IMG/VR virus record: IMGVR_UViG_3300031912_000871
Span: 23,322-87,321 of that record
DNA length: 64,000 nt
Source of the DNA: a virus
Taxonomy: Duplodnaviria > Caudoviricetes
Reading direction: 5' to 3' (one strand)
Shown in pieces: positions 1 through 63,887 of this stretch (the first letter of the stretch is position 1; every line of letters begins with the position of its first letter). The notes beneath the pieces are model-generated. The model had not been told where the DNA came from. It ran no database searches and was given only the letters and a program-made list of their open reading frames with translations. A program made the position numbers and the translations under genes.

Positions 1-601
1 GCTCCTCGTGGACGACGCTCAGGTCGGCGTCGGTGGGGTCGACCAGGCCGGCCCACACCAGGATGCGGCGCGGGGAAAGGCGGAACGCTCCGCTCTTGCG
101 GACCGACTCCCCGGCCGCTGCGGCCCGCTTCACGACGTCCGGGGCGTAGGGGATCCACCAGACGACGGCGACGAGCAGCGGCAGAACGATCCGCAGCGCG
201 AACTCGGCCGTGGTGGCGGCGGTCAGGGCGACGACGAAGCCCATCGGGACGGCCACGATCCACACGAGCCGGCCGGGCCAGCCGAGGTTCCCGTGCTTCT
301 TGTGGTGGTCGTCGGCGTAGGCGGCGAGGGTGATCAGCACGGCGCTGGTGACGCCGGCCAGCACCCACGCCGCTACGCCCTTCGCGCCGCTGATGACGGC
401 GAGGTGGTGGAGACCCTGCGCCTCCCACAGCAGCACGAGCGGGGTGGTGACGGCGCGGCCGACCTTGGCCAGGGAGCGGCGCCGCACCTGCCACCACAGC
501 AGACCGATCAGTACGGCGGCCAGGGCGGCACCGGTTGGCACGATCATCGCGCCCACCTGGTCGAGGGCCGGCGCCCACTGCGCCGGGTCGAACTGGTCCA
601 C
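1..601 (-). CDS. Multi-pass membrane protein, Spd (plasmid spread)-like; runs off the left edge
   Basis: Not in ORF track; translated by hand from GTG 601 behind RBS GGAGACCCC: MDQFDPAQWAPALDQVGAMIVPTGAALAAVLIGLLWWQ...FRLSPRRILVWAGLVDPTDAD. Several hydrophobic helices; lies downstream of traB. Confidence 0.65.
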   Translation of the reverse strand, partial: MDQFDPAQWAPALDQVGAMIVPTGAALAAVLIGLLWWQVRRRSLAKVGRAVTTPLVLLWEAQGLHHLAVISGAKGVAAWVLAGVTSAVLITLAAYADDHHKKHGNLGWPGRLVWIVAVPMGFVVALTAATTAEFALRIVLPLLVAVVWWIPYAPDVVKRAAAAGESVRKSGAFRLSPRRILVWAGLVDPTDADLSVVHEE

Positions 602-628
602 AGGGGTCTCCTCAGTGTCGGGGCTCGC

Positions 629-847
629 TCAGCCGCTGATCTTCTGGCGCACGGAGTTGTCGGAGGCGTAGTCGAGGTGGCGGGCCAGCGCGCGCTTCGG
701 CACGCGGTGAACGCGCACCAGGCGGAGCAGACGCGCGCCGAGGGTGCCGCGTAGCTCGGCGACGCGCGCCTCCAGCTGCTCGATCTCGTCCTTCGCGGCG
801 CGTGCCGCGTCGAGGTCGGCGCGCGCGTCGGGGGGCAGGGTCTCCAT
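629..847 (-). CDS. Small coiled-coil/HTH-like protein
   Basis: METLPPDARADLDAARAAKDEIEQLEARVAELRG...VPKRALARHLDYASDNSVRQKISG; ATG 847 with TACGGT -10-like hexamer just upstream. Confidence 0.6.
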   Translation of the reverse strand: METLPPDARADLDAARAAKDEIEQLEARVAELRGTLGARLLRLVRVHRVPKRALARHLDYASDNSVRQKISG

Positions 848-929
848 GTCGGAGCACCGTACCGTCGGGCGCGCACTGGTGTGCGCGGTCGGGGCGGGGT
901 GAGCGTGTCGCAGATGCATCGGCGCGCTC

Positions 930-1313
930 CTAGCGGGCGATGGCGCGCGCCGGGCGCGCGTTGGAGGTGAGGGGGTTCGCGCGCCGGGGCGCGCTGGCGG
1001 GGAGTTCCGGCGCGCGGCGGGGCGTGCCAGCGATCTGGGTGAGCGCGGCGGCGAGCTGATCGGCGACCACCTCGGCGCGTAGCGCGGCGCGGTGGTCGCT
1101 GGGCAGCGGCGCGGAGAGAGTCACGTCGAGCCGAACCCGCCGGCCGGGGATCTGGGTGAGGGTGGCGACGACGACGCCGAGGTCCGGAACGTGCCGGCGG
1201 ATCGGCTCGCTGCGGTGCTCGCCGGACAGGCTGAGGGCTTGGCAACGGGGGACGTCGCACCACTCGGGGTGGGTCTTCGGCGGGCGGGTCCAGCGGCGGC
1301 CGGTGATGGTCAC
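930..1313 (-). CDS. Hypothetical protein of conjugative module (HPEWC...C...H motif)
   Basis: GTG 1313 overlaps traB stop (GTGA); MTITGRRWTRPPKTHPEWCDVPRCQALSLSGEHRS. Confidence 0.6.
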   Translation of the reverse strand: MTITGRRWTRPPKTHPEWCDVPRCQALSLSGEHRSEPIRRHVPDLGVVVATLTQIPGRRVRLDVTLSAPLPSDHRAALRAEVVADQLAAALTQIAGTPRRAPELPASAPRRANPLTSNARPARAIAR

Positions 1314-3427
1314 GCTACCTCCTGAAGCTGCCGGGCGGTACGGGTCGCGAGCGCCCACTCGCCGTCGCGGTCGGTGCGGCGCACGCGGGCGCCGGGTCGG
1401 GACACCTCCCGGCCGAGGGAGGTGGAGACGGTGCTGCGGGTCGCGTTGATGGCGGTGGCGATGACGGAGGTGGTGGCCGGGCCGTGCTCGGTGAGGAAGT
1501 CGACCGCCTTGTCCACGACCGTGCCGCGCGCCCTGGGCTGCGCCGCCGCGGCAGGCGCAGCGGCCGGGACGGGAGCCGGGGAAGGGGCAGGGGCCGGGTT
1601 GGCTGCCTGAACGGTGATGACCTCACGGGCCGGGGCCTCTACGGGCATCGTGGGTTCGGTGGCCCGGTTGTAGCCGGGGCGGACCGCCTTCGGTGCCAGC
1701 GGCGACCGCTTCCACTGCTCGTAGTAGTCGCGGCCCGCGCCGCGGGCGGTGATCTCGTCCAGCGCCGGGCGGCGGGCGGCTGCCGCCTCCGCGTGCTCGA
1801 AGTCGTCCTCGTCCGCGACCGACGGCGTGCGGGAGAACGTGGCGCGGGCGCTGCCGGGGGCGATGGACTCCAGCACGCAGGTGCCCTTGGTGTGCTCGTA
1901 CGGCTGGCCCGGGGGGTGCAGCGGGATCTGGTCCGGTGACGGCATGTGCGCCGAGAGGATCATGCCCTTGCCGACGGGCTCGTTGTTCCGGAACGCGACG
2001 ACGTTGCCCTTGGTGTTCTGCCGGATGGTGTCGTTGTTGCCCAGCTCGGGGATGGACGGCATCTGCACGCCGACGGCCAGGCAGCCGCCGACCTTGCCGT
2101 CGAGCTTGACGATCTCGGCGACGAGGGACCGGCTGTCGGGGTCGTAGCGGAACAGGACGGGAATCTCGTCGGCGGCGACCCACAGGATCGGCATGTACTC
2201 GCCGAGGCGCATGGGCTGCCCGTCGACCAGCACCATGATGTCCGGGTCGTAGCGGGCGATGCCGTGGCGGATCTTGCCCTTGCTGGTCTGGAACGGCAGC
2301 TCACCGAGGACCGCGGACCGGGCGAACAGGGCGTTGCGGAACGCCTCCAGCAGCTCGATGCACTGCTCCGGGTCGCGGGCGATGTAGTCGGCCTGGCCCT
2401 CCTTGCCAGCCCAGGCCGGGAAGGACTGGCCGCCCTGCGGGCACGCCGCCCACGGCACGACCAGGCCGGTGTCGGTGACCTGGGTGCAGGCGGTGGAGAA
2501 GCCCTTACTCTTCCCGGACCCCGAGTCGCCGGCGAACACCGAGTTGACGGTGCCGGCCTGCGGCACGTAGATCGCGAACCGGCCCCGCGCCCCGTCGGGG
2601 TAGGTGGTGAGGGCTACGGAGCCGTGCTCCAGGCCCTTCCAGCTGTCGTCGTAGTCGGTCTTCGCGTACGTCTTGTTGGCGTTGACCTTCATAACGCGGG
2701 CGGTGTCGAGACGCTCCGACGCCTCCGGCTCGACCACGAACTCACCGCGCGAGCACCGGTATGCGGAGCCGATGAACTCCTGAGCGGCGACGGCCTGGCC
2801 GGTGGTGAACAGGCCCGGCTCCCCGACGATCACGCCTTCCCACTCGATGTTGCCCTTGCCGGGCTTCACGTCGATCAGCTCGGTGCCGGCGAGCCTCCGG
2901 TTCGGGGCACCCAGCTTCTCCGCCCAGATGACCTGCTGCGGGGTCAGCGGCTTCGGGCGGCGTACCCGCCGGTCCCAGATCCACGGGCCGGCGGCGGCGA
3001 TGGTGAGCGCGGCGTGGATGCCGGCGGTCCAGGTCAGCGGCAGGGTCCAGGTGGTGAGGATCAGGGACCAGACGGCGGCGGTGGTGAGGCACGCCCAGGC
3101 GTAGACCTGCTTCGCGCGGCGGAGCTTGCGGCTCTGCCTGCTGCGGCGGCGGATCCAGAGGGCGAGGTAGACGGCGGCGATCGCGGTGCCGGCGGTGACG
3201 GTCTGCCATGGCTTGTGGGTGCCGTGGAGCAGCACCGCGGCGATGGCCAGCCAGAGGGAGGCGTAGAGCGGGGCGAGCAGCTGCCGGTACCGCCAGCCGT
3301 AGCGCAGCGACAGCCGGATGACCCAGGTGATCGCGCGGACGAGGCCGCTGATGAGGGCGCCGAGCGCGCGCAGCGGCCACCACACGCGGCGGCGCGGCGC
3401 GGGTTGCTGCTGGGTCTTGCCGAACAC
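1310..3427 (-). CDS. traB: FtsK/SpoIIIE-family conjugative DNA translocase (TraB-like)
   Basis: N-terminal TM helices, Walker A AGDSGSGKS, Walker B WVAADE, GVQMPSIPELG motif, C-terminal wHTH (GPATTSVIATAINATRSTVSTSLGR). RBS AAGGAGG before GTG 3427. Confidence 0.85.
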   Translation of the reverse strand: MFGKTQQQPAPRRRVWWPLRALGALISGLVRAITWVIRLSLRYGWRYRQLLAPLYASLWLAIAAVLLHGTHKPWQTVTAGTAIAAVYLALWIRRRSRQSRKLRRAKQVYAWACLTTAAVWSLILTTWTLPLTWTAGIHAALTIAAAGPWIWDRRVRRPKPLTPQQVIWAEKLGAPNRRLAGTELIDVKPGKGNIEWEGVIVGEPGLFTTGQAVAAQEFIGSAYRCSRGEFVVEPEASERLDTARVMKVNANKTYAKTDYDDSWKGLEHGSVALTTYPDGARGRFAIYVPQAGTVNSVFAGDSGSGKSKGFSTACTQVTDTGLVVPWAACPQGGQSFPAWAGKEGQADYIARDPEQCIELLEAFRNALFARSAVLGELPFQTSKGKIRHGIARYDPDIMVLVDGQPMRLGEYMPILWVAADEIPVLFRYDPDSRSLVAEIVKLDGKVGGCLAVGVQMPSIPELGNNDTIRQNTKGNVVAFRNNEPVGKGMILSAHMPSPDQIPLHPPGQPYEHTKGTCVLESIAPGSARATFSRTPSVADEDDFEHAEAAAARRPALDEITARGAGRDYYEQWKRSPLAPKAVRPGYNRATEPTMPVEAPAREVITVQAANPAPAPSPAPVPAAAPAAAAQPRARGTVVDKAVDFLTEHGPATTSVIATAINATRSTVSTSLGREVSRPGARVRRTDRDGEWALATRTARQLQEVA

Positions 3428-3488
3428 GGCTTCCTCCTTCTTCGTGGGGGCGGCCCCGGGCCGGAGTGGTCCGGGGCCGCCGGGTTGA

Positions 3489-3872
3489 TCAGTTGGTGCG
3501 GGTGGTGGTGTTCGGTCCGGCGCCGTACGTCTCGCGTTGGGCGAGGCCACCGGCGGCCTGGCCGCGTTCGCGGATGGACAGGTGCTGGTCGATCAGGCCG
3601 AGGATCGTGCTGGCGATGCCGCGGCTGGCGTCGGCGTGCTTAGCGCGGTCGGTGGCGGCCTGGGCGCGCTGCTGCGCGCGGTCGCGGAGACGACCGACGG
3701 CCGCGACACCGGCCCCGGTCGGGCCGAACAGCCGGATCATGTTGCCGTGGAAGCGGTCGAACCGGGCGAGGTCCTCGTCTGCGAGCTGGCGGGCGGCGCG
3801 GGCGTCCTCGACGTCCCGGGAGGCCGTCACCTGGAGGTCTCCGGCGTACCGCTTCGCGTCGGTGAGGTTCAT
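3489..3872 (-). CDS. Helical hypothetical protein, conjugation operon
   Basis: 127 aa, RBS AGGAG, co-directional with traB. Confidence 0.65.
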   Translation of the reverse strand: MNLTDAKRYAGDLQVTASRDVEDARAARQLADEDLARFDRFHGNMIRLFGPTGAGVAAVGRLRDRAQQRAQAATDRAKHADASRGIASTILGLIDQHLSIRERGQAAGGLAQRETYGAGPNTTTRTN

Positions 3873-3886
3873 CTGGATGCTCCTGT

Positions 3887-5308
3887 TCAGATGGCGTAGG
3901 CGTCGGTGACGGCCATGCCGCCGGCCTGGTCGACGGCGGCCTTGACCTGCCGGTGCGGGTCGACCTCGGAGAGGGCCTGCCGGGCGTCGGAGAGGGTGCC
4001 GTCGGCCGCGGCGATCCGGGCGGCGGCGGCGTTGACGCGGCCGTTCGTGTGGTCGGCGAGGTCGCGGACAGCGCCGATCACGTCATCGGGGAAGTTGTAG
4101 CCCTCCACCCAGTGCTTGAGATCGGTGTGCCACTTGGCTTCCTCCATGACCCGCTGGAGGTAGGACTGGGCGTCCTCCCGCTCGGCTTCCTGCTCGCGGA
4201 TGATGCTGTCCAGCTCGGCGCGGACCTGCTCCAGGTTCCGCACGTCACCGCCGGTCGCGGTCTCGATCGGCACCGTGGTGCCCCCTTCGGTCGTCGTGGT
4301 GTTGTCGCTGGCCAGTCGCAGGTGGCGGCGGTTGGTCCGCTCCTGCTCGTCGGCTGTCTTGGCGTGCCGCTTGCACAGGTCGCCGACCTCGGTGGCCTCG
4401 TCGGTGCACCGCTCGCCCGGACCCTGACCGCCGATCGGGGGCGACACGTGCCGGCACTGGCTGGTCCGGGCGTTCTCGGCGGCGACCAGCGCGTCGTGGC
4501 GGGTGCAGTAGCCGTTGCCGAGCTGCTCGTCGCGCAGGTCGGTGCAGTTCGAGCGGCCGGTGTTGTAGCGGCACAGGCGGTGAGGTTCGTCGCGGGCGAC
4601 CTTCTTGAGCTCCTCGGTGAGGGTCTGCTGCTTCTCGATGGTGTCGATGCAGGTCTGGCAGTACGGCTCGCCGGGGGCCTTCGGGTTGGTGCACTGCTGG
4701 GTGCTCGGCCACGGCAGCGGGAACCTCTGGCACGTGTCGTCCTGCTGCTCGGCCGGGGCGGCCGGCTTCGTTTCCGGTGCGGCTGTGGGCACCGGCTTGG
4801 CCTTGCGGTCGGCGGTGGTGTTGCAGTCGACGCACTTGTCTCCGGGCAGGAGGATGGTCTTGCAGTCGGGGCAGCGCTGCCAGCGGGAGTCGGTCTTCCA
4901 GTCGTACTGGCACAGCTCCCGCTTGCGGTTCTGGTGCTGCGCGGGCCAGCCCATCTTGGCGAGGTTGGCGCGGCAGTCGGCCTGCGGGCATAGGCCCGGT
5001 TCGTCCGTGCCCGCCTCCTTCTTGGTGCGCTGCTCGTACCACTTCCGGGCGGTCGCGGATCCGGTGGGCCAGCCCTCCTTCATGCCCTTGGCGAAGCCGC
5101 GCAGGTAGAGGAAACCGCCGACGGCGCCGGTGGCGATCGCGGCGCCCACCTTGACGCCTGCGGGGGCCGGTTCGGGGCTGGAGCCCTTCCACGCCTCGAC
5201 GCGGCCCCGGTAGAAGCCGGCGACGGCGGCCTTGCCTTTCCCTCCGGCCTTATAGATCACGGTCGCGATGACGGCGATCCAGATCAGGCCGATCCACGTG
5301 ATCTCCAT
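3887..5308 (-). CDS. Membrane-anchored protein with several Cys/His zinc-finger-like motifs and C-terminal helical domain
   Basis: N-terminal TM; CPDC..CVDC, C..C..CQTC and two C..C..CxxH clusters; C-terminal ETATGGDVRNLEQVRAEL coiled region. Confidence 0.7.
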   Translation of the reverse strand: MEITWIGLIWIAVIATVIYKAGGKGKAAVAGFYRGRVEAWKGSSPEPAPAGVKVGAAIATGAVGGFLYLRGFAKGMKEGWPTGSATARKWYEQRTKKEAGTDEPGLCPQADCRANLAKMGWPAQHQNRKRELCQYDWKTDSRWQRCPDCKTILLPGDKCVDCNTTADRKAKPVPTAAPETKPAAPAEQQDDTCQRFPLPWPSTQQCTNPKAPGEPYCQTCIDTIEKQQTLTEELKKVARDEPHRLCRYNTGRSNCTDLRDEQLGNGYCTRHDALVAAENARTSQCRHVSPPIGGQGPGERCTDEATEVGDLCKRHAKTADEQERTNRRHLRLASDNTTTTEGGTTVPIETATGGDVRNLEQVRAELDSIIREQEAEREDAQSYLQRVMEEAKWHTDLKHWVEGYNFPDDVIGAVRDLADHTNGRVNAAAARIAAADGTLSDARQALSEVDPHRQVKAAVDQAGGMAVTDAYAI

Positions 5309-5310
5309 CG

Positions 5311-5763
5311 TTACTTCTTTCCGGTGCCGGTGAAGGAGCCGACGATGCTGCCGACGAACTCGGTGATGCCCTTGACCAGCTGCTCCAGGCCGTCACCGAA
5401 GTCGCCGGTGGCGGACCGGACAGCGAGGGGGAGCAGCGCGGCGGCGGCGAGGGTGATCCAGTCGACCTGCTTGCGCCACATGTGCACGGCAACCACGAAG
5501 AAGGCCGCCAGGGCGATGAGGCCGGAGACCTTCGCGTCGAGCTTGTCCATGGTGAGCTTGTCGATCAGCTTGGTGATGGAACCGACCGCGCCGTCCGCCT
5601 GCTCGCCGGCCCAGGTGGTGATGAGGCCGGACACCCCGGTCATGACGAGGACTGTGGTGACGCGCGGCAGCATCCGGTTGCCGACCGTCCAGAGCAGAGT
5701 GGCGATGACGAGGCAGGCGAGGCCGGCCCCGGCGGACACCGCGTAGGTGGCCTCGGGCTTCAT
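5311..5763 (-). CDS. Four-helix membrane protein (Spd-like)
   Basis: 150 aa, four hydrophobic segments, 2 nt upstream of the next gene in the operon. Confidence 0.7.
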   Translation of the reverse strand: MKPEATYAVSAGAGLACLVIATLLWTVGNRMLPRVTTVLVMTGVSGLITTWAGEQADGAVGSITKLIDKLTMDKLDAKVSGLIALAAFFVVAVHMWRKQVDWITLAAAALLPLAVRSATGDFGDGLEQLVKGITEFVGSIVGSFTGTGKK

Positions 5764-16455: not shown

Positions 16456-16499
16456 GCCCGCCACGATCGGCCCCGCGAGGGGTTAGCGTCCCGTGGCAG

Positions 16500-21339: not shown

Positions 21340-22298
21340 GCTGGCTTCTCCACGAACTCGTAGTCGATGGTGATGATCGACTGATAGTCCGCCTGGAAGG
21401 TGCCAGAGCCACCGGAGCGGACCCCGGCAGCGGCGAGGGTGCGGGTGGTGCCGCGGTGCGCGGCCGGGATCGCGTGCTCACCGGCCACCGAGTAGTAGCC
21501 GCGGCCGGCGACCGTCTCCACCAGGATGCCGTTCTCCGACGAGTAGTCGCTGCCGTTGTAGACGGTCTTCAGACCAGCGACCGTCGGGGTGCTGGCGCCG
21601 GGAATGTGCTCGATGCCCTGCAAGGTGATGTTGACCCGCACGTGGGTCGCCCAGGCCGGCACCTCCACGCTGATCTGCGACGCCGCCGGCCACACCCCGT
21701 ACGCGGTGCCGGAGATGTTGTTGTCGCCCCCCGGGAACTTCACCACGAGGTCTCGCTCGCGGCGCGGATTCGCGATCCGCCGCAGGTCCGCGATCATCGC
21801 CTGGGTGACGGTGGCCGTGGACGGGGGAATGTCCACCCGCGCCAGCGCGATCCCGGAGAACCCGAGGCCCAGGTCGGTGAGCCGCCTCGTGGTCGGCGGG
21901 ACGCCGGGGATGACGACGGTGTTGATGTACGGGCCGACCGCCGGGTCGGCCGGGTCGGACCACGGCTCCCCAGCGAGCCACGGGTCTTCCACCCTGGCGA
22001 TCACCAGGTCGGACCGGCCCGCGCCGGCGCCGGTCGCTGCGATGCCCGCCGTGTCCTGGGTGGCGCATCGGCCCGCGTACGCCTGGTGCAGTTGCCCGGC
22101 CGCTCGGCAGAGGATCGAGCAGGCGCCCGGGTCGACGGTCACGCCCGCGCCGGGCACGGCCAGGGCCTTGACCTTCAGGTCGTCGGGCCCGACGACGCCT
22201 TCGTTGCCGCGGAAGGCGACGAAGGCGAGCATCCGGGCTACCTCGGCGGAGTGCTGCGCCCCACCGCCCACCATCCACGGCACGCCGTCCCAGCCCAC
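21336..22298 (-). CDS. Minor tail/baseplate protein
   Basis: 320 aa between Dit and Tal-like gene; RBS GGAGG. Confidence 0.75.
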   Translation of the reverse strand: MGWDGVPWMVGGGAQHSAEVARMLAFVAFRGNEGVVGPDDLKVKALAVPGAGVTVDPGACSILCRAAGQLHQAYAGRCATQDTAGIAATGAGAGRSDLVIARVEDPWLAGEPWSDPADPAVGPYINTVVIPGVPPTTRRLTDLGLGFSGIALARVDIPPSTATVTQAMIADLRRIANPRRERDLVVKFPGGDNNISGTAYGVWPAASQISVEVPAWATHVRVNITLQGIEHIPGASTPTVAGLKTVYNGSDYSSENGILVETVAGRGYYSVAGEHAIPAAHRGTTRTLAAAGVRSGGSGTFQADYQSIITIDYEFVEKPA

Positions 22299-28631: not shown

Positions 28632-28700
28632 CGCTGCCTCCAGGTGCTCGACGGCCCGCACGATAGGCGGCCAGAGCCGGTAGCGTCCCGGGCCGCCCGT

Positions 28701-29222
28701 CTACTTGGCGCGCAGCCGGCGAGCCACCTCGGACACAGCCCGGCCCATGAAGCGGGCCGCCTCGTCCTTGTCGGTGCCGAACTCGGACTCCACCACCCGG
28801 TGGCCGTGGCAGGTGACCGTTCCCTCCACCCGTGAGCCGGACACCCGGACCGGGTGGGCGTGGATGTTCCGGGCGATGCCATCCGGGTCCTTCACCGCCT
28901 GGCAGCGGCAGTTCTCCGTCAGCCCCGGAGTGCCCTCCCGGTCGCGGGGCTCCCGCAGCTGCTGGTGCGGGCCGGCGCCGTAGTGGTGCTGGTCGTACTC
29001 CGGGGACTGGAGCACGAACCGCAGGTTGTCGGGCTGCTCCTGGCCGTGGGCCTCCCGGTGCTCGGGCCGGACCACCGCGTCACCCTTGGACACCCACGTC
29101 TTCGTCGGCGGGGCGTTGCGCTGCGCCGCGTCGGCCAGGTCATCGGTGATGCGCTGCACGCGGGGCGCGATCAGCCGCGCGATCGCCTCCTCCAAGCCCG
29201 GACGGGGCCGGTACCGGGTCAC
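28701..29222 (-). CDS. Neck (HK97 gp10-position) protein carrying a MuF-like C-terminal motif block
   Basis: KTWVSKGDAVVRPEH...LREPRD...ENCRC inside an otherwise gp10-like frame (ESEFGT...FMGRAV). Confidence 0.6.
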   Translation of the reverse strand: MTRYRPRPGLEEAIARLIAPRVQRITDDLADAAQRNAPPTKTWVSKGDAVVRPEHREAHGQEQPDNLRFVLQSPEYDQHHYGAGPHQQLREPRDREGTPGLTENCRCQAVKDPDGIARNIHAHPVRVSGSRVEGTVTCHGHRVVESEFGTDKDEAARFMGRAVSEVARRLRAK

Positions 29223-29596
29223 GTCACGCTCCTCACCGGGTAGCCCCGGTCGACGTCCGGCGGGTCCTGCACCGCGGTCACCGCCACGTAGTCCACGTCC
29301 GAGTGCCCGGCGACCTGATGGCGCAGGGGAGTGCCGGTCACCACCCACCGCCGGTCGTCGGCGACCCGGGTGATGACGTCCCCGGCCGCGACCGGCCAGA
29401 GTGCAGGGTCGAGGCGCAGCGACCAGGATCCGTCGACCTGCCGCGTCGCCGCCCCGTCGGCCGGGCCGACCGGCGTCGGCGGCGGTCCGGGCATGGGGGT
29501 GCCGTGCGCGTCGCGAGGTTGCGGGTGGACTTCCTGGAGGAGCAGGTACAAGCCGTCCGCGAGCAGCACCGCCACAGTCACCACCTCCGCCTGCAT
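29219..29596 (-). CDS. Head closure/head-tail protein
   Basis: WSLRLDPALWPVAAGDVITRVADDRRWVVTG; neck-gene position. Confidence 0.6.
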   Translation of the reverse strand: MQAEVVTVAVLLADGLYLLLQEVHPQPRDAHGTPMPGPPPTPVGPADGAATRQVDGSWSLRLDPALWPVAAGDVITRVADDRRWVVTGTPLRHQVAGHSDVDYVAVTAVQDPPDVDRGYPVRSVT

Positions 29597-29621
29597 GGTG
29601 CCGGGCGAGGTGGAGTTGCGT

Positions 29622-30625
29622 CCTGGAGGCGAGCCTCCAAAAGCGACTTTTTTGCCGCTACGAATGTCACCTTCTTCGCACAGCCGTTCGATGCGAAAGG
29701 CTGATTTTTCAGGCACTTTCCGTGCTCAATGCGCCCTTCGCTCCGCATATGTCCACGTAGACGCCCTCATTGGTGACCCTCTGTGTTCCGAACACTACGC
29801 GCACAAGGTTGCGGAGGATGACCATGCGCGGCATAGGGTGTACCCCGATCCACAGCGGCGGACCTCTGGTCTGCGTCACGGTCTACGCTATGGGTCGCAC
29901 CACGCTGATCCGTCTCGCCTTGCTGTCCCCCGGGGGGCAAGGACGCTCCCGAACCACCAGGAGTGCGACGGAGAGGACTGTGGTGGGAACACCCAACCGC
30001 CGGCGATGCTGCCGGCACTGCAAAACAGCTCGGCGGAAGGCCACCGATCGGTGGCGGAACGCCGAGCGAGCGGCGAACCTCCTCGCGAGGATCGCCGTGA
30101 TCGTCGAAGCGGCGCACCAGGTCGCTCGCGACGCCGGGCTGATGTGACCGGTCACGGTCATCGACGCCCGAAACGGGTGTGACCCCACCTAAACGGCAGG
30201 GTCACGATTCCGTGCGGTTAGGGCAAGCGGATCCCCGCTGGGTGGCCGCCCAGTGGAACAAGGGTCCGCTTGTTCCTATTTACGGGCCATGTTACGGCCC
30301 GGTATCGCCCTCGCAGGTTACTCCAGAGTTCTGGATGAGCCTGACAGGAGCGAAGTGTGGCACAGCGTTCGTTGTGGCGAAAGCCCCGGGGGCGGCGCAA
30401 GTTGCCCCGGTCAAGATTCTCACAGCGCCGAGGTGAGCAGCTTGCTGAGCAGGAGAAACGGCCTTCACCTGCGCAAAGGCGTGTCCTAGGACGGACTAAA
30501 CGGCACGCGGTGTGTCACACGCCCGAGGCGCCTACCCGCCGGTAGTTTGTTGGGCGGTGAGCCCGGCCTGGAACGTCCGGACCCACCACCAACACCCCAC
30601 TAGGGGAAACGACCCCCCCGGATCG
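29622..30625 (-). ncRNA. Candidate ~1 kb structured non-coding RNA (strand partly uncertain)
   Basis: No ORF with phage-like protein character; more than 20 short stems; late-promoter motif at 30652 points into it; closing hairpin at 29624-29639. Confidence 0.55.
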
Positions 30626-30632
30626 TGAGCGC

Positions 30633-30662
30633 ACAGTATCGACCGTCCTGACGTAGCGTCCC
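30633..30662 (-). promoter_or_regulatory. Late-promoter motif copy driving the non-coding region
   Basis: GGGACGCTACG (30652-30662), 13 nt, TACTGT (30633-30638); same geometry as other copies. Confidence 0.7.
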
Positions 30663-30679
30663 TCGCCAAGATCACAGCG

Positions 30680-31273
30680 CTACAGCCAGGGCAAACCATC
30701 ACCGGGAATGGTCTCGGCGCGATCCGACCGCTGCCACGCCAGCCCATCGGCGGACCGCCAGAAGTCGAGCGACGTCAGCGGCGGCACGCCCGCCGTCGGC
30801 GCCGCACTAGCCCCCGGGATCGGCTCGTACGACACGGACTGTCCCTCGGCGCTGACCGACCTCACCTCGCGCCCGGCGGACCCGGAGAGCCGACGTACCG
30901 CTGGGTGAACCTGCGCCGCCGCTGTCACCCACTCCCGGATCGCCGCGTACTGCGGCTCCCGGCCGTCGAGGCCCGTCTCGTACACGACGGTGAAAAACCC
31001 GGTCTCCCACCCGGTCGGGTCGGTCTCCGGCGTCACCGACACGATCCGGGCGGGCGGGTGCTCCAGCGGCCATCCGGAGTCGAGCGGCCGGACCCCGCGC
31101 TGCGTGAGCTGCACCGGCACCACCATGCGCCGCAGGTAGCCCTCGGCCGCCGCGGTGGCGGCCCGGATCGCCGCTTCCACCGCGAACTGCACCTGTTCCT
31201 CGGTGGGGTCGAGCCCGGCCAGCCGGGCCACCTGGTCGACGGGCACGATCAGCGGGGGAAGCGGCGCCGTCAC
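30680..31273 (-). CDS. Head-tail adaptor
   Basis: AIRAATAAAEGYLRR, EVRSVSAEGQSVSY; typical position after capsid. Confidence 0.7.
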   Translation of the reverse strand: MTAPLPPLIVPVDQVARLAGLDPTEEQVQFAVEAAIRAATAAAEGYLRRMVVPVQLTQRGVRPLDSGWPLEHPPARIVSVTPETDPTGWETGFFTVVYETGLDGREPQYAAIREWVTAAAQVHPAVRRLSGSAGREVRSVSAEGQSVSYEPIPGASAAPTAGVPPLTSLDFWRSADGLAWQRSDRAETIPGDGLPWL

Positions 31274-37239: not shown

Positions 37240-37297
37240 GAGCGTGCCTCCAGATGGGCGGGCAGAGTCTGCCCGGCATGGTCGCTCCGCCGCCGGG

Positions 37298-39637
37298 TTA
37301 GCGTCCCGCTCGTGTGGCCCGCTTGGCGCTGAGGGTCAGCCGACACCGGCAGCCGATCGTCTCCTCCAGCGGGCCGTCCGGGTCGCGCGGGTACCGCAGC
37401 TGCGCCTTGCCCACGGAGAACGTCTTGCCGACCGGTCGGGCTTGCCCGTTGGCGTTGCGGTGGGTGGTCCGGACGGCGCTGTCACGGCGGTCCCGCCACG
37501 TCGCGGTCACCTCCAGCCCGAGCGCGGCAGCAGCCCGCGCCGCGGCGTACATGCCGCCGGTGACAGCCGTGCGGACGGCGTGACCGGCGACGCTCTTCGC
37601 CCAGCTGAGCAGCGACCCGGCGTCGACCCGGGCGGTGAGCTGCTCCATGGTCTCTCCGGCGGCCTCCCCGGCGGCGAGGGACGCGGCGAGCTTGAGGCCG
37701 GCCGCGCGGGCGGCGTCAGCGGCGGCTGTGACCGCTGCGGTGGCCACGGCCGCCGCTTCCCGGCCTGCGGCGGCCGTGCCTGCCGACGGACCGGCGAGCA
37801 GCCCCACCGCGGTGACGGCGGCGCCCGTAGCTGCGGCCGCGATCAGCGGGCTCAAGGCATCCTCGGTGTCCTGCGCCCACACGTCGGGGTCGACGGCCGC
37901 CGTGGTGTCGAGGGCCTTCAGCCCGACCCGCCGGTCCACCTCCATATCGGGGTCGGCCGTCCAGTGCCGGGTGCCCTTGCGGGCCTTCGGGGACCGCAGC
38001 CGCGCCGACGTCCGCGCCGCCCATCGGGCCGTCAGAGCCGTCAGTGCCGCGGTCACCGCGGCCTCGGCTGCCTCGCCGCCCACCTGCTCGCTGCTCACCG
38101 TGCGGGCTGGCGCGGCGGCGGCCTTCAGCCCGTACCGGGCTACCCCGAGGGCGGTTTTGCCGGCCGGTTCGCCGGCTGGCTTCTCACGGTCGGCGGCGTC
38201 GCGTGGCTTCCTGCCGGCAGGTGGCTTCGTCTCGCTGTCCGGCTTCTCGTCCGGCTTCTTCCCGGTGGGGGGCTTGTCGCCGGGCTGCTCCTCGTCGCCG
38301 CCGTCGGCCGCAGGGGCCATCTGGGCGGCCATCTCCTCGCGGCGCTTCTCGGCCTCCTCGACGTCCTCCGGTGTCTGCGGGATCTGTGCCTTCCCGGTGT
38401 TGGGCAGCCACAGCGCCCGGGTCTCGGGCGTGGAGTGCACCTCGTAGCCGGCCAGCTCCGCGTACGACTCGATGGTGCGGAGGCCCTGCTGCACCTCCAG
38501 CCGGGCCTCCTCGCGGACGGCCCGCTGAGGTAGCCGCAGCGCTTCGACACCGGACAGGTCGAACTCCGGTTCGAGGTCGCGCTCGTCCAACGGGTCGACC
38601 ATCTCCGCTGCGATCAGCTCCAGCGGCGGCGGCATGGTCTCGGTCCAGAAGTTGTACTTGTCCTGCGCGGCGTTGTCGAACGTCGAGCCCTTGGAGATGC
38701 CGAGCAGGCTCTCGGGTACACCGATGCCGCCGAGGATCTCCTCCCGCGCGTTGCGGGTCAGCTGCTCGTACAGCATGTCCTTCGGCCGGGCCGACAGGTC
38801 GGCGTAGCTCACCTGGTCGGAGTTGACGATGGTGACCTTGCCGGCGTCGACCGGACCCCGACCGAAGCGGCGCTCCAGCTTCGTGGTGTCCTCGCCGTTG
38901 AGGCCGCCCTTGATGCCGACGATCGCGCGTACGTGCCCGTCGTTGAGCATCCAGTGCACGTTGATCTGCCGGGCCAGGTCGTCCATCTCGACGGACGCGC
39001 CGAGCGCCGACATCACCGTGTCCGCCCGGAACGGGTCCAGCGGGTGCGGCTCGCGGATCCACCACACCCGGTCGAACGGCACGGTCCGGACCGAGCCGTC
39101 GGGCATCTTCGTCTCGAAGTGGGAGATCAGCCGGTCACCGGCCACGACCCGCCCACTCTTCGCGCTCTCGGTGGGCACCGGCACGGTGCGGCCTGGGGGC
39201 AGCAGGTCCAGGCGGATGATGTCCCCGCCACGGGAACGGGTGAACTCCACGAACGCGCCACGCGGCGAGTACATGACCTGGATGAACAGGCGCCGCTTGA
39301 ACGCGCGGCCCTTCTCCAACGGGTTGGTCTGAGCGTGCGGCTGGAGCAGCCGGACCACGGGGTGGTCGTCCACGTACTCGTCGGTCCCGGCGACCTTGTA
39401 CCGGAACGGCAGCCGGGAGAAGTGCCCGGCCATCAGGGAGGTGCCCCGCCACAGCCAGACGGTCCGCTCATACGCCTGGTAGACGGCCCGCTCGACGTCC
39501 CACTTCTGCTGGCGGCGTTTCCCGCCGAGCCAGTCGGGCATCTGCCCGCTGTCGGTGGACCACCGGATCGTATCGACCGTCTTGGTCTCCACGTCGTCGG
39601 CGCGGCGGCCGAGGCGGAGGCTGGGGAACAGCGGCAC
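37298..39637 (-). CDS. Portal protein fused to MuF-like minor head domain
   Basis: Portal motifs (FRYK, VPFDRVWWIREPHPLDPFRA, REEILGGIGVPESLLG); C-terminal TWRDRRDSAVRTTH...LRYPRDPDGPLEETIGCRC. Confidence 0.88.
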   Translation of the reverse strand: MPLFPSLRLGRRADDVETKTVDTIRWSTDSGQMPDWLGGKRRQQKWDVERAVYQAYERTVWLWRGTSLMAGHFSRLPFRYKVAGTDEYVDDHPVVRLLQPHAQTNPLEKGRAFKRRLFIQVMYSPRGAFVEFTRSRGGDIIRLDLLPPGRTVPVPTESAKSGRVVAGDRLISHFETKMPDGSVRTVPFDRVWWIREPHPLDPFRADTVMSALGASVEMDDLARQINVHWMLNDGHVRAIVGIKGGLNGEDTTKLERRFGRGPVDAGKVTIVNSDQVSYADLSARPKDMLYEQLTRNAREEILGGIGVPESLLGISKGSTFDNAAQDKYNFWTETMPPPLELIAAEMVDPLDERDLEPEFDLSGVEALRLPQRAVREEARLEVQQGLRTIESYAELAGYEVHSTPETRALWLPNTGKAQIPQTPEDVEEAEKRREEMAAQMAPAADGGDEEQPGDKPPTGKKPDEKPDSETKPPAGRKPRDAADREKPAGEPAGKTALGVARYGLKAAAAPARTVSSEQVGGEAAEAAVTAALTALTARWAARTSARLRSPKARKGTRHWTADPDMEVDRRVGLKALDTTAAVDPDVWAQDTEDALSPLIAAAATGAAVTAVGLLAGPSAGTAAAGREAAAVATAAVTAAADAARAAGLKLAASLAAGEAAGETMEQLTARVDAGSLLSWAKSVAGHAVRTAVTGGMYAAARAAAALGLEVTATWRDRRDSAVRTTHRNANGQARPVGKTFSVGKAQLRYPRDPDGPLEETIGCRCRLTLSAKRATRAGR

Positions 39638-39827: not shown

Positions 39828-39876
39828 GGCCGGGACGGTAGGCCCACCGAAGGGCTAGCGTCCCCCGGGCGCGTGG

Positions 39877-47985: not shown

Positions 47986-48968
47986 CCGACCTGGCTCGGT
48001 TCACCACCACGGCGGTCGTGGCCGGCGAGCAGGACGCCCTGCGGGACTTCACCGAGCGGTGGCTGACCAACCGGCGGCTGTCCGAGCACACCCGGGCCGC
48101 GTACCGCCGCGACGTCGGCCTCTGGGCCGCCTGGTGCGCGGAGCGCGGACTGAACCCGCTGCAGGCGACGTTCCTCGACGTCAACGCGTGGGGCCGCCAC
48201 CTGGAGCAGCCAGACCCGCGCACCGGGAAGCCCGCCTCCCCCGCCACGGTCGCCCGCCGACTCTCGGCCGTGTCCAGCTGGTACGACTTCCTCGCGAAGC
48301 TCGGCGCGGTGGCCACCAACCCGGCCGCCGTCGCTGATCGGCCCCGCGTCGACCGGGACCACTCCCCCACGATCGGGTTCACCGCTACCGACGCCACCGC
48401 GATGCTCACCGCAGCCGCCCGGGGCGACCGGTGGATCGGCTCAGCCGGCCCGGCGGTCGCCTCCATGCTGGTAGACCTCGGCATCCGGGTGTCCGAACTG
48501 TGCGCCCTCGACGTCGAGCACCTCGGCCACCGCGAAGGCCACCGCACCGTCGACCTGCTCGCCATGAAGGGCGGGAAGCGGCGCACCCGGTCCATGCCGC
48601 CCGCCGTGGCCAAGGTGGTCGACGCGTACCTCGAGTTCCGGGCCGGCCGGGAGCAGATGCCGGTCGAGCAGCTGCACGGGCCGCTGTTCCTCAACGCCAA
48701 GGGCCAGCGGATCGGCCGGCACGAGGTGTACCGGTTCGTGCGCCGGCTGGCCAAGGCCGCGGGCATGGCCGGCTGGGAGAAGATCAGCCCGCACTCGTTC
48801 CGGCACGCCTGGAACACCATCGCCCGGGAGCGGGGCGCTGATCTGGAAGACCGCCAGCACGCCCTCGGTCACGCCGACCCGCGTACGACCCAGCGGTACG
48901 ACCGGAACCGCGGCGCCCTCGACCGCGACCCGTCGTGGCTGGTGGCCGCCGCAACGTCGGGCAGCTGA
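47982..48968 (+). CDS. Xer-type tyrosine recombinase
   Basis: SEHTRAAYRRDV, DLGIRVSE (R), KGGK (K), HSFRH, LGH, TTQRY; no N-terminal arm-binding domain. Confidence 0.92.
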   Translation: MTDLARFTTTAVVAGEQDALRDFTERWLTNRRLSEHTRAAYRRDVGLWAAWCAERGLNPLQATFLDVNAWGRHLEQPDPRTGKPASPATVARRLSAVSSWYDFLAKLGAVATNPAAVADRPRVDRDHSPTIGFTATDATAMLTAAARGDRWIGSAGPAVASMLVDLGIRVSELCALDVEHLGHREGHRTVDLLAMKGGKRRTRSMPPAVAKVVDAYLEFRAGREQMPVEQLHGPLFLNAKGQRIGRHEVYRFVRRLAKAAGMAGWEKISPHSFRHAWNTIARERGADLEDRQHALGHADPRTTQRYDRNRGALDRDPSWLVAAATSGS

Positions 48969-61734: not shown

Positions 61735-63743
61735 GACGGCTGGATCCAGATGTCGCCGGGGTTGACGGTCGGGTCGCTGCTGCCGCCGATGTAGATGACC
61801 GCGCCGGTGACGGCCTGGTACTCGGTGCCGTTCCACAGCCGTACGGTGGGCCGGCTGCCGAGGCCGGGCACGGTCGGCGCGGCGGCGGTACCGGCGAGGT
61901 CCCCGGCGAGCTGCACGATGCCGCGCGTGCCGGTGGTGGCGTCGGGGAGCCGGGCCACGGCGAGGGTGCCGGAGCCGATGTCGGAGGCGGGGTGGGAGTG
62001 CGATGCGGCCGCCGCGCCCGCTTCGGCCGGGCTGTGTGTGTGGCTGGCGGGCGCGGCCCCGGCCTCGGCCGGGCTGTGCGTGTGGCTCGCTGCCGCCGCG
62101 CCGACCTGCGCGGCGGTGTGGCTGTGCGCGGCGGCTGCCGCACCGACCTCAGCCGCGGTGTGCCCGTGGCCTGCGGCGGCGGCCCCGACCTGCGCGGCCG
62201 TGTGAGTGTGTCCGGCCGTCGCGGCCCCGATCTCAGCCGGCGTGTGCGTGTGGTCGGTCGCTGCGGCGCCGACGTCAGCGGCTGCGAGAACGACCACGCC
62301 GGTGCGGCCGTTCACGGACAGCACCGCGTCCGCCGGGGTGGGCAGCTGCTTCCAGCTGGCCAGCGCCGACGGCGGGTCGGCGGCGAGGATCAGCGCGCCC
62401 GGCAGGTCGGTGCGGATCGCGACGTCGCCGCGCTGTGCGGCCAGGGCCAGCATCTCCGCCTCGCTGGCGACGGTGAACACGTCGGTGATCGCGAGGGCGG
62501 GCAACTGGCTGGTGGGCAGCACTCCGCCGACGAGCGGGCCGGCAGGGCCGCCTTCGACTCCGACGGTGGAGGTGGGCACGTAGCCGGGGTGGGAGTGGAC
62601 GTCTTCGGCCTTCGTGGCGAGGGCCTCGGCGACTTCGGTCTCGGTGGGGTACCGGTCGTCGTGGTCGTGGACGGCAGGCGCGGCGCCGACGTCCGCCGCG
62701 GTGATCGCGGGTAGCTGGCTGGCGGTGAGCTGGCCGGACCCGTCGAGGGTGGCCACCCCACCGGCGGTGCCCTTCTCCACGACCGGCACGTACGGGTGCG
62801 CGTGGGTGGGGGCCTTCCCTGCGAGGGCGGCGTCTACCTCCACCTCGGTGTAGTAGCGGTCGTCGTGCTGGTGCACGGACGGGGCCGCGCCGACGTCGGC
62901 GGCGGTGAGCGCGGGCAGCTGCGCGGCCAGCAACCGTCCGGACCCGTCGAGCGGTGCGACACCGCCTGCCACGCCGACCGCGCTGGTCGGCACGTACGGG
63001 TGGGCGTGGTCGGCCGGGGCTCGGCTGGCGAGCGCCACGTCCACCTCGGACTCGGTGTAGTAGCGGTCGTCGTGGCTGTGCACGGCCGGGGCGGCTCCGA
63101 CCTGCCCGGCGGTGATGGGCGGGAGCTGCGCGGCCGGGAGCCGACCGGACCCGTCGAGGGACGCGACCCCGCCGGCCTGGCCGCGCGCCGACTTCGCCAG
63201 GTACCGGTCGGACAGGTCGACGGCGCCGGTGAGGCCGTCCACGGAGTCGACGGCCCCGCCGCCGCCCGGTCCCCCACCACCGGCGGGGAGGTGCTTGGCG
63301 GGGACCAGGCCGTCCGGGCCGAGCGGGGCGACGCCGTCGGGCTGGCCGACCTGCGCGGCGAGGACGTACGAAACCGTGCCGCGGGACGGTGTGGCCGGGG
63401 CGAGGTCGGCCAGGTTGACGGTGGCCGGGCCGGGCGGCAGGTGGATGTCGTAGGTGCGCGGCTGCGCGCCGGTGATCCGCTCGACTACCCACCAGGTCAC
63501 TCCGGCAGGGCTGACGGCCGGGCTGGCGACGGACGGCAGCTCCACCTGGAGTTGCCCGTCGACCAGCTCGGCGTCCACCTTCTTGGGGATGAGCACGAGG
63601 TCGTCGGCGGGCACCTGCACGGTGTCGCGGAGGCGGAAGGTGACGGTGCCGGCCGCGGGCGTGCCGCCCTGGTCGTCGGCCAGCTTGTAGGTGGCGTTGA
63701 CGGTGACGGGGGCGAGGTTCGGCGGGTACGACACGAGGGGCAT
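61731..63743 (-). CDS. Second tail-fibre-like protein with HxH and GGVA.LDG repeats
   Basis: Three ~68-aa repeats (GVASLDGSGRLPAAQLP...HDDRYYTE.EV) and HTHT.AEVGAA repeats. Probable start GTG 63734. Confidence 0.8.
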   Translation of the reverse strand: MPLVSYPPNLAPVTVNATYKLADDQGGTPAAGTVTFRLRDTVQVPADDLVLIPKKVDAELVDGQLQVELPSVASPAVSPAGVTWWVVERITGAQPRTYDIHLPPGPATVNLADLAPATPSRGTVSYVLAAQVGQPDGVAPLGPDGLVPAKHLPAGGGGPGGGGAVDSVDGLTGAVDLSDRYLAKSARGQAGGVASLDGSGRLPAAQLPPITAGQVGAAPAVHSHDDRYYTESEVDVALASRAPADHAHPYVPTSAVGVAGGVAPLDGSGRLLAAQLPALTAADVGAAPSVHQHDDRYYTEVEVDAALAGKAPTHAHPYVPVVEKGTAGGVATLDGSGQLTASQLPAITAADVGAAPAVHDHDDRYPTETEVAEALATKAEDVHSHPGYVPTSTVGVEGGPAGPLVGGVLPTSQLPALAITDVFTVASEAEMLALAAQRGDVAIRTDLPGALILAADPPSALASWKQLPTPADAVLSVNGRTGVVVLAAADVGAAATDHTHTPAEIGAATAGHTHTAAQVGAAAAGHGHTAAEVGAAAAAHSHTAAQVGAAAASHTHSPAEAGAAPASHTHSPAEAGAAAASHSHPASDIGSGTLAVARLPDATTGTRGIVQLAGDLAGTAAAPTVPGLGSRPTVRLWNGTEYQAVTGAVIYIGGSSDPTVNPGDIWIQPS

Positions 63744-63887
63744 GGTGGCCGCTCGGCCGGGTTAGCGTCCCTGCTCACCGCCCGCTGGCGGGTCGGCAGT
63801 CGACGTCGAGGGCCGGTGGAGGGCACCTATTCGACTTCTGCGCTATTCGTCGATCTTGGCATTCTCGGTGGCATGCAGCCGGCACTA

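Follow-up and report, generated by a model that had tools for sequence, protein, structure and literature searches.

A putative micro-gene on a structured transcript within a cassette inserted among the virion genes of a virus related to Micromonospora prophages

The locus between the adaptor and head-closure genes

The DNA analysed here is a 64,000-nucleotide (nt) window, part of the 87,321-nt IMG/VR virus record IMGVR_UViG_3300031912_000871 (positions 23,322 to 87,321), with a guanine-plus-cytosine (G+C) content of 70-75%. Its virion genes lie on the minus strand, with an open reading frame (ORF) at 30680-31273 that matches a head-tail adaptor PHROG, then a head-closure gene and, downstream of it, an ORF containing a MuF-like segment. 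Between the adaptor stop at 30680 and the head-closure gene lies a gap, at 29597-30679, in which an initial annotation had proposed a hairpin-packed, non-coding unit of ~1 kilobase (kb) with its own late promoter, possibly a GOLLD-like large RNA. By comparison with close relatives, all of those found being Micromonospora prophages, we consider it likely that the gap is instead an inserted cassette that carries, on the plus strand, a gene for a 54-residue basic peptide on a folded messenger RNA (mRNA), and not a giant RNA.

The gap itself is genuine. Its G+C content is 0.64 overall (local range 0.57-0.69) versus 0.72-0.75 in the flanks, and the virion-sense coding signal in third-position G+C (GC3) that marks the flanking genes is absent across it. 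Every stem listed in the initial annotation was found in its place, as was the hairpin at 29624-29639. Folding in excess of dinucleotide shuffles (150-nt windows) is restricted, however, to ~29950-30400, where both strands reach z -3 to -6 and the plus strand folds more strongly at 29950-30100. The outer parts, 29650-29900 and 30325-30450, which had been counted into the hairpin-packed unit, fold like chance (z +1 to -1.4), similar to the coding flanks.

Searches for a known RNA were negative. At the gathering score, Rfam gave no match in the whole window; within 29300-30900, at E values up to 10, it gave only short chance matches to single-hairpin microRNA and small-RNA models (E ~0.4-5), and six related loci gave none at E values up to 0.1. 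No match to GOLLD, ROOL, an intron or any other Rfam family was found, and the evidence does not support the proposed GOLLD-like large RNA under a late promoter of its own. Within the 87 kb record the insert occurs only once, and it lacks terminal inverted repeats. It had no BLASTN match among phage records, and in 201 Micromonospora genomes only two short matches (47 and 64 nt), which we judged to be chance; exact-pattern scans of viral and metagenome contigs for the invariant hairpin described below returned no match.

Insertion site and cassette families

The empty site is seen in L007, a cassette-free Micromonospora prophage on a phage-sized contig, whose adaptor is 78% identical to that of the window. 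At the same junction it has only ~190 nt, made up of the promoter, a leader and the palindrome GTCCTAGGAC, and then the head-closure gene. The alignment covers the adaptor, the promoter and ~130 nt of leader up to 30548, continues by eye to GTCCTAGGAC at 30483-30492, and resumes at the head-closure start at 29574, with ~52 unaligned bases of its own between. Because L007 joins 30548 to 29574 with only these ~52 nt between them, ~0.9 kb has been inserted into the window relative to it.

Gaps of 1.1-1.3 kb separate the adaptor and head-closure genes in L018, L019, L021, L024, L026 and L027, and we distinguish two families of cassette. Family A comprises the window, which is identical to L020 (a separate 85,477-nt contig in an NCBI assembly), together with L021, L018, L024, L061 and L062. 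Its common core, at window ~29884-30301, is 70-88% identical; L021 is 85-88% identical across the whole gap, and L061 and L062 are ~70% identical over window 29911/29964 to 30271/30301. Family B comprises L019, L026, L027 and L029-L034, the last six from a scan of 275 Micromonospora genomes. Its members align with one another but, as DNA, not with family A, and hold the same kind of ORF at the same place. At one and the same junction, the cassette is absent from L007, present in L018, L020, L021 and L024, and represented by an analogous cassette in L019, L026 and L027.

Outside the core, the gap is largely lineage-specific. The lower-G+C spacer at 29640-29833, with few small hairpins and no conserved frame, is common only to L021, against which 1-nt insertions or deletions break all frames; it gives no alignment to L018, L024, L061 or L062, and its folding (z ~0 to -1.4) is ordinary. 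On the other side, a spacer at 30285-30454 contains a few conserved islands in the family-A alignments and shows no fold excess, much of it being shared only with L021 or only as short islands. These islands include GTAAC(A/C)T motifs, which would be TANNNT -10 boxes if read virion-sense.

The late promoter that points into the gap, at 30633-30661 on the minus strand (GGACGCTA, a 15-nt spacer and TACTGT), is a true copy of its motif and is conserved in L007, L021 and L018. It is followed by a late-transcript leader at 30493-30625 on the same strand, consisting of GATCCGGGGGGGTCG and then hairpins, of which 30548-30625 aligns to L007 and 30493-30547 is common to the cassette-bearing relatives. 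Since the insert-less L007 has the promoter and ~130 nt of leader, both belong to the backbone, and the promoter, far from being the unit's own, is the ancestral promoter of the head-closure/tail operon, outside the insert. The family-B cassette points the same way: it lies upstream of the late promoter, not downstream, so the promoter is not part of the unit.

The boundary between backbone and cassette falls at GTCCTAGGAC (30483-30492), a perfect palindrome of 10 base pairs. It occurs in five of the six family-A members, L024 differing by one base, and in the empty site of L007, while family B carries it as TCCTAGGAA. An imperfect direct copy, TCCAGGAC, at 29622-29629 ends the insert and overlaps the -35 part of a second promoter copy at 29595-29623. 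A candidate repeated operator, TCCTAGGA, was rejected, having a single exact copy in the 64 kb window. Pairing arms were also noted nearby: in family B, GTGTGTCA pairs with TGACACAC ~145 nt downstream (alignment columns 7-14 and 158-165; L019:4711-4718 and ~4853-4860), and in family A the same two arms are adjacent, as the palindrome GTGTGACACAC at window ~30506-30516, just upstream of GTCCTAGGAC.

The junction in L024 (1713-2250), a prophage of M. haikouensis, is rearranged. There the adaptor is followed by TCCTAGGAAAAC, the late promoter, the leader and the first ~8 head-closure codons (M-A-V-L-L-A-D-G), and then by ~250 nt, the family-A cassette and a complete head-closure gene, an arrangement that resembles a junction duplication (alignment, by eye). 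Using tblastn, no longer duplicated fragment of head-closure coding sequence was recovered in L024.

The cassettes are not confined to this operon. The family-B module, ~500 nt consisting of the ORF and ~285 nt of conserved 3' flank, also adjoins a tyrosine integrase and a TraG/TraD-like gene in L030 and an aldolase gene in L029. L061 (metagenome contig, 1-5596) is a prophage remnant in which the adaptor and head-closure genes are truncated and the cassette is intact; an AAA_21/AAA_15 ATPase gene and a serine resolvase lie near that cassette, a setting like that of a defence island or mobile element. In family B the gap additionally holds a decayed N-terminal fragment of a deoxycytidine triphosphate (dCTP) deaminase (L019:5454-5515, aligned in L026 and L027), which is frameshifted in L019 but keeps its frame in L027; its identity to the dcd gene on the chromosome of ~55 Micromonospora genomes is 82-86%. 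It had been a candidate RNA, as a conserved 60-nt family-B block, and that candidate was dropped; the deaminase was recognised because those ~55 host genomes matched the 60-nt piece. The fragment is what is left of an earlier cargo at an insertion hot spot. From these comparisons the cassette appears to be autonomous and the site a hot spot for insertion, with the unit moving as a cassette among Micromonospora prophages, prophage remnants and an element like an integrative and conjugative element (ICE).

A conserved small ORF on the plus strand

When the gap was compared with that of L018 by tblastx, all frames scored alike and all contained stops. Conservation is thus at the level of nucleotides and not of a long ORF, which led us to a small one. 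Although none of the ORFs in the gap had been thought to look like a protein, a plus-strand ORF at 29983-30147, encoding 54 amino acids from a GTG start behind the Shine-Dalgarno (SD) sequence GGAGAGGA and containing three hairpins, is kept in every relative with a gap here. Homologues occur in every related gap of both families. None of the 15 copies has the frame interrupted, and no other frame is open in all 13 of the sequences that were scored. In these 13, GC3 is 0.81-0.95 versus 0.48-0.67 at second codon positions. Each scored copy has an SD sequence 5-7 nt ahead of the start. All nine insertion or deletion events within the ORF are multiples of 3, whereas those in the flanks are of any length. 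Gene callers had already placed a reverse-strand gene of 54-56 codons in L018, L024 and L027. We think it probable that the small ORF is translated.

The predicted peptides share one build: an Arg-rich N-terminal half of ~25 residues, a Trp (usually in R-W) and a hydrophobic or amphipathic stretch of ~25 residues, with an end like RDAGLM in family A and like YRAWKGM in family B. A profile search of 1.8 billion representatives returned 13 proteins, themselves cluster representatives. The 11 of these that we read all have the same build, ten with 44-58 amino acids and one with 107, the last being a longer gene call of the window's own ORF. Peptides that mostly have 44-58 residues, Arg-rich at the head and hydrophobic at the tail, would constitute a new, small and unannotated family. 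AlphaFold predicts a single helix over residues 11-50 (mean predicted local distance difference test score 74), and the C-terminal Kyte-Doolittle maximum over 19 residues, 0.6-1.7 across the family, is borderline for a membrane span.

Covarying helices and the strand that folds

A consensus fold was derived from the six-sequence family-A alignment, and 95 pairs were scored. In order, its helices are two hairpins in the 5' untranslated region (UTR), three hairpins in the ORF (29999-30016, 30029-30066 and 30070-30098), a hairpin at 30173-30213 and a long hairpin at 30221-30275. In L061 and L018, hairpins that differ in sequence stand in place of the two in the 5' UTR. The 3' UTR hairpins, at 30148-30220 on the plus strand, include the nearly invariant GTGACCC/GGGTCAC stem at 30179-30205, which extends to 30173-30213. 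A predicted intrinsic terminator follows at 30221-30284 on the plus strand, where the long imperfect hairpin precedes a U-rich tail that is present in all six family-A sequences.

Read on the plus strand, 91.9% of the cells in these helices are paired, versus 87.1% in shuffled alignments, none of 500 shuffles being as high. Covariation in the syntenic intervals of the relatives, a check that the initial annotation had proposed, supports the helices: 19 pairs are changed on both sides versus 9.6 in shuffles (0 of 500 reach this number), and the covariation score is 0.231 versus 0.15 for shuffled and 0.06-0.09 for slid controls. The claim of a large structured RNA therefore survives in part, as a conserved, covarying structure in the middle of the gap, while conservation covers only ~450 of the ~1,080 nt.

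Folding is better on the plus strand, which is opposite to the virion genes and the late promoter. When these helices are read in the virion sense, pairing falls to 82.1% and G·U cells number 11, compared with 67 in the plus sense; the plus strand also has the lower consensus energy in all blocks tested in both families. In the 22 pairs of the terminator stem, four of which are changed on both sides, the plus strand has 130 of 132 cells paired and 24 G·U cells, the virion strand 106 of 132 and no G·U. Only a few helices have G·U pairs in the virion sense alone, and they are taken up below.

Boundaries of the unit and possible control

The conserved core starts at GGCNTASGSTGTACC and ends at the U-rich tail near 30284. 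At its start, on the plus strand, 29834-29982 would hold the putative promoter and 5' UTR of the small gene, with two -10-like boxes (TAGGGT at 29834-29839 and TACGCT at 29884-29889), two hairpins (CCTTGC...GCAAGG at ~29918-29942 and CTCC...GGAG) and the SD sequence. Both boxes have the form TANNNT, in which T, A and T are invariant in the six sequences and the middle bases are variable. From these patterns we infer that the core, 29834-30284, is a promoter-to-terminator unit of ~450 nt. In family B, a conserved -10 box (TACTGT, TAGCGT or TACCGT) stands ~265 nt before a shared hairpin that holds the stop codon of the ORF.

One consensus fold pairs 29898-29914 with the SD sequence and start codon and shows some double changes. 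This SD-sequestering helix is unstable to the range aligned, being lost when the alignment was folded without its 3' part. Pairing in trans between virion-sense RNA and the translation start, calculated with RNAduplex, did not exceed shuffles (z ~-1.4 to +1.6).

The late promoter and the TANNNT boxes face the small gene, and transcription in the virion sense would meet a terminator-like site before reaching it. That site, found in a terminator scan at 30455-30480 on the minus strand, is a small hairpin followed by GUUUYYCC, just inside the cassette. In all six family-A sequences we noted by eye a hairpin of varying sequence ahead of the conserved GTTTYYCCTGMTCAG (GTTTYYCC), and it is plausible that the site terminates transcripts from the first promoter copy.

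A proposed moron-type cassette and its alternatives

Phage morons are autonomous promoter-gene-terminator units that lie between conserved late genes, as in lambdoid phages and actinophages. The cassette resembles them in being present or absent at the same junction, in having a G+C content below that of its flanks, in being oriented against the operon, in occurring in other mobile contexts, and in its own putative -10-like box and predicted intrinsic terminator. It differs in that the cargo is only 54 codons on a ~450-nt, helix-rich, covarying mRNA, and in being bracketed by two copies of the phage late promoter. We favour a moron expressed from the prophage, with a basic single-helix peptide that would act on membrane or nucleic acid.

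According to this proposal, the leader of the head-closure/tail operon would have received a moron-type cassette of ~0.9 kb, at or next to GTCCTAGGAC. The core of the cassette, ~29834-30284, would be a self-contained plus-strand transcription unit, antisense to the virion genes, with, in order, a -10-like box, a hairpinned 5' UTR of ~90-135 nt, the SD sequence and 54-codon ORF, a hairpinned 3' UTR and a long-stem terminator with a U-tail; the consecutive stems of the initial annotation would be helices of this ~450-nt mRNA. The product would be a peptide that forms a single helix, Arg-rich in its N-terminal half and hydrophobic in its C-terminal half. The small hairpin and U-tract just inside the cassette probably damp convergent late transcription, the second promoter copy would restart the late operon after the cassette, ahead of head-closure, and terminator-like site and promoter together would leave the cassette insulated. 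As to function, we can offer only a tentative guess, itself rather doubtful, that the peptide serves as a toxin or exclusion factor, active on membranes or binding nucleic acid, and that the prophage makes it under tight post-transcriptional control. If the small gene is as proposed, a hairpin-packed, seemingly non-coding gap in a high-G+C phage can conceal a reverse-strand micro-gene that gene callers report only sometimes.

Several observations weigh against such a gene. The sample is small, with six sequences in family A and nine in family B, and the structure was derived from the same few sequences on which it was tested, so that the pairing and covariation figures are inflated. The promoter boxes and the terminator are pattern-level assignments. 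The peptide had no credible match in Pfam, PHROGs, PADLOC or NCBIfam. The initial annotation had looked to codon-level conservation of an ORF as the sign of a protein; the frame is conserved, but the ratio of non-synonymous to synonymous polymorphism (pN/pS) in it is 0.6-1.4 (~1), not better than in control frames, so that purifying selection at the codon level is absent. No segment of the family-B module varies more than the ORF, and the best-conserved peptide motif, A-T-x-R-W, is encoded by both arms of a conserved hairpin, so that RNA structure, and not protein, could be the constraint. Finally, the strand evidence is mixed for the hairpin at 30173-30213: the two central pairs of its 30179-30205 stem form G·U only in the virion sense, whereas its outer helix does so only in the plus sense. 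A CCGG/CUGG variant in L018 also forms wobble pairs in the virion sense only. Some folding of the virion-sense transcript is therefore possible.

A more specific form of the proposal is a switch like those of type I toxin-antitoxin loci, tied to the lysis-lysogeny programme. Such loci include hok/sok, fst/RNAII, txpA/RatA and the prophage modules of C. difficile (PMC6563280, PMC7699646). The mRNA for a toxic or exclusion peptide would come from the prophage and would be structured and restrained in its translation, and virion-sense transcription would supply the antisense RNA, from the late promoter in family A and from the module's own -10 box in family B. The arrangement is attractive because the peptide is small (<60 amino acids, with a predicted hydrophobic helix), the mRNA would be long and highly structured, the module is carried on mobile elements and the promoters are convergent; in family B, moreover, the stop codon lies inside a hairpin that could terminate transcription on both strands. 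Unlike known type I systems, the cassette showed no trans complementarity to the translation start in the calculation above, and the charged half of its peptide is N-terminal and not C-terminal, with borderline hydrophobicity. We regard the switch as unlikely, if appealing. A 2025 paper (PMC12390103) places type I systems so far only in Proteobacteria, Firmicutes and Tenericutes; a toxin under antisense control here, if true, would extend type I biology to Actinobacteria and would explain the survival of the module in decaying prophages and its carriage on ICE-like elements.

The proposed peptide gene has to be set against a plus-strand, ~450-nt structured non-coding RNA, in which the 54-codon frame would be untranslated or irrelevant and held open by hairpin constraints. 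The pN/pS near 1, the coincidence of hairpin arms with the best-conserved codons, the family-B non-coding flanks, which are more conserved than the ORF, and the covariation along the whole unit all fit an RNA of this kind. They have to be reconciled with nine of nine ORF insertions or deletions in multiples of 3, versus arbitrary lengths outside, with GC3 at 0.81-0.95, with an SD sequence and start codon in every scored copy, and with the same peptide build in two families that cannot be aligned as DNA. In view of these we think a purely non-coding plus-strand RNA quite unlikely.

The ~1 kb virion-sense RNA of the initial annotation, running from the promoter at 30662 to the hairpin at 29624-29639 as a GOLLD- or ROOL-like RNA, a new class or the leader of the tail operon, is improbable. 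A genuine promoter copy does point into the gap, the region also beats shuffles in folding on the virion strand, and the virion-sense-only G·U pairs at the centre of 30179-30205 and in the L018 variant would suit it. As with GOLLD and ROOL, the location is a prophage and consecutive stems occur without an obvious long ORF. Unlike them, it has no covariance-model match, and what is conserved is ~450 nt on the other strand, with a conserved ORF and lineage-specific flanks. L007 has the same promoter without the whole insert, the family-B cassette is upstream of the late promoter, the helices and above all the terminator stem favour the plus strand, and the terminator-like hairpin and U-tract lie only ~170 nt past the predicted start. 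A false lead is thereby removed: we see no GOLLD-like giant RNA at this locus.

Very improbable, too, is that the gap is decayed cargo, the functionless remains of an older gene or mobile element whose hairpins are chance palindromes of G+C-rich DNA. Decay is evident around the core, in the frameshifted deaminase fragment at the same site in family B, in the lineage-specific outer gap that folds no better than chance and in the rearranged junction of L024. The core itself is 70-88% conserved across six phages or remnants, with the frame kept and compensatory changes present, and it has stayed whole in a remnant where the virion genes on either side are truncated.

Cluster A mycobacteriophages have RNA-based origins of ~600 base pairs, which adjoin parABS, are needed for prophage maintenance and express non-coding RNA without a conserved ORF (Wetzel et al. 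2020, PMC7157519). Such an origin of an extrachromosomal prophage is hardly probable here, despite an actinophage interval of comparable kind (~0.6-1 kb without a long ORF, with a promoter and structured RNA), an identical phage on its own 85,477-nt contig and a ParA-like ATPase in the record, because the close relative L007, on a phage-sized contig too, dispenses with the cassette, L018 has it while integrated in a 7.16-megabase chromosome, and the cassette, with its conserved in-frame ORF, sits inside the virion operon ~30 kb from the ParA-like gene in a record where the ParB_N domain was not found.

Late promoters and neighbouring features

The promoter that precedes the cassette is one of a family. 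The pattern GGACGCWA-N16-AYYRT has seven matches in the window, all on the minus strand, with none expected by chance, at 16463-16491, 28660-28688, 29595-29623, 30633-30661, 37278-37306, 39835-39863 and 63742-63770. The family has the form GGACGC(T/A)A, a 15-nt spacer and (T/G/C)A(C/T)(C/T)(A/G)T, and each copy precedes a late gene block. Its -35 part (GGGACGC), with a -10 part that often contains CGT, resembles promoters of extracytoplasmic function (ECF)-type sigma factors, and the family suggests a phage-directed late sigma factor or activator. The seven-copy map should be useful for annotating this phage group.

The second copy at this locus, at 29595-29623 on the minus strand, consists of GGACGCAA, a 15-nt spacer and CACCAT (29595-29600) and is preceded by the hairpin at 29624-29639; its spacer length and -10 box are identical to those of the copy at 63742-63770. 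It also bears on the start of the head-closure gene, which we place at 29219-29575 on the minus strand. Because ATG 29596 sits within the -10 box of this promoter, and L007 head-closure begins M-A-V-L-L at the position aligned with 29575, the start is probably GTG 29575, with the SD sequence GGAGG at 29583-29587, and not ATG 29596.

Elsewhere, the genes of the virus record include two for tyrosine recombinases and one for a ParA-like ATPase (AAA_31), these three together at G000:C1:18-608, 21375-21893 and 71774-72229, the last interval corresponding to window 48453-48908. No transfer RNA or transfer-messenger RNA genes were found. On a related phage contig, L025, a reverse-strand gene at 2284-2916 with a faint HNH_3 match lies between the tail-tube gene and downstream tail genes, as another insertion into the same structural operon.

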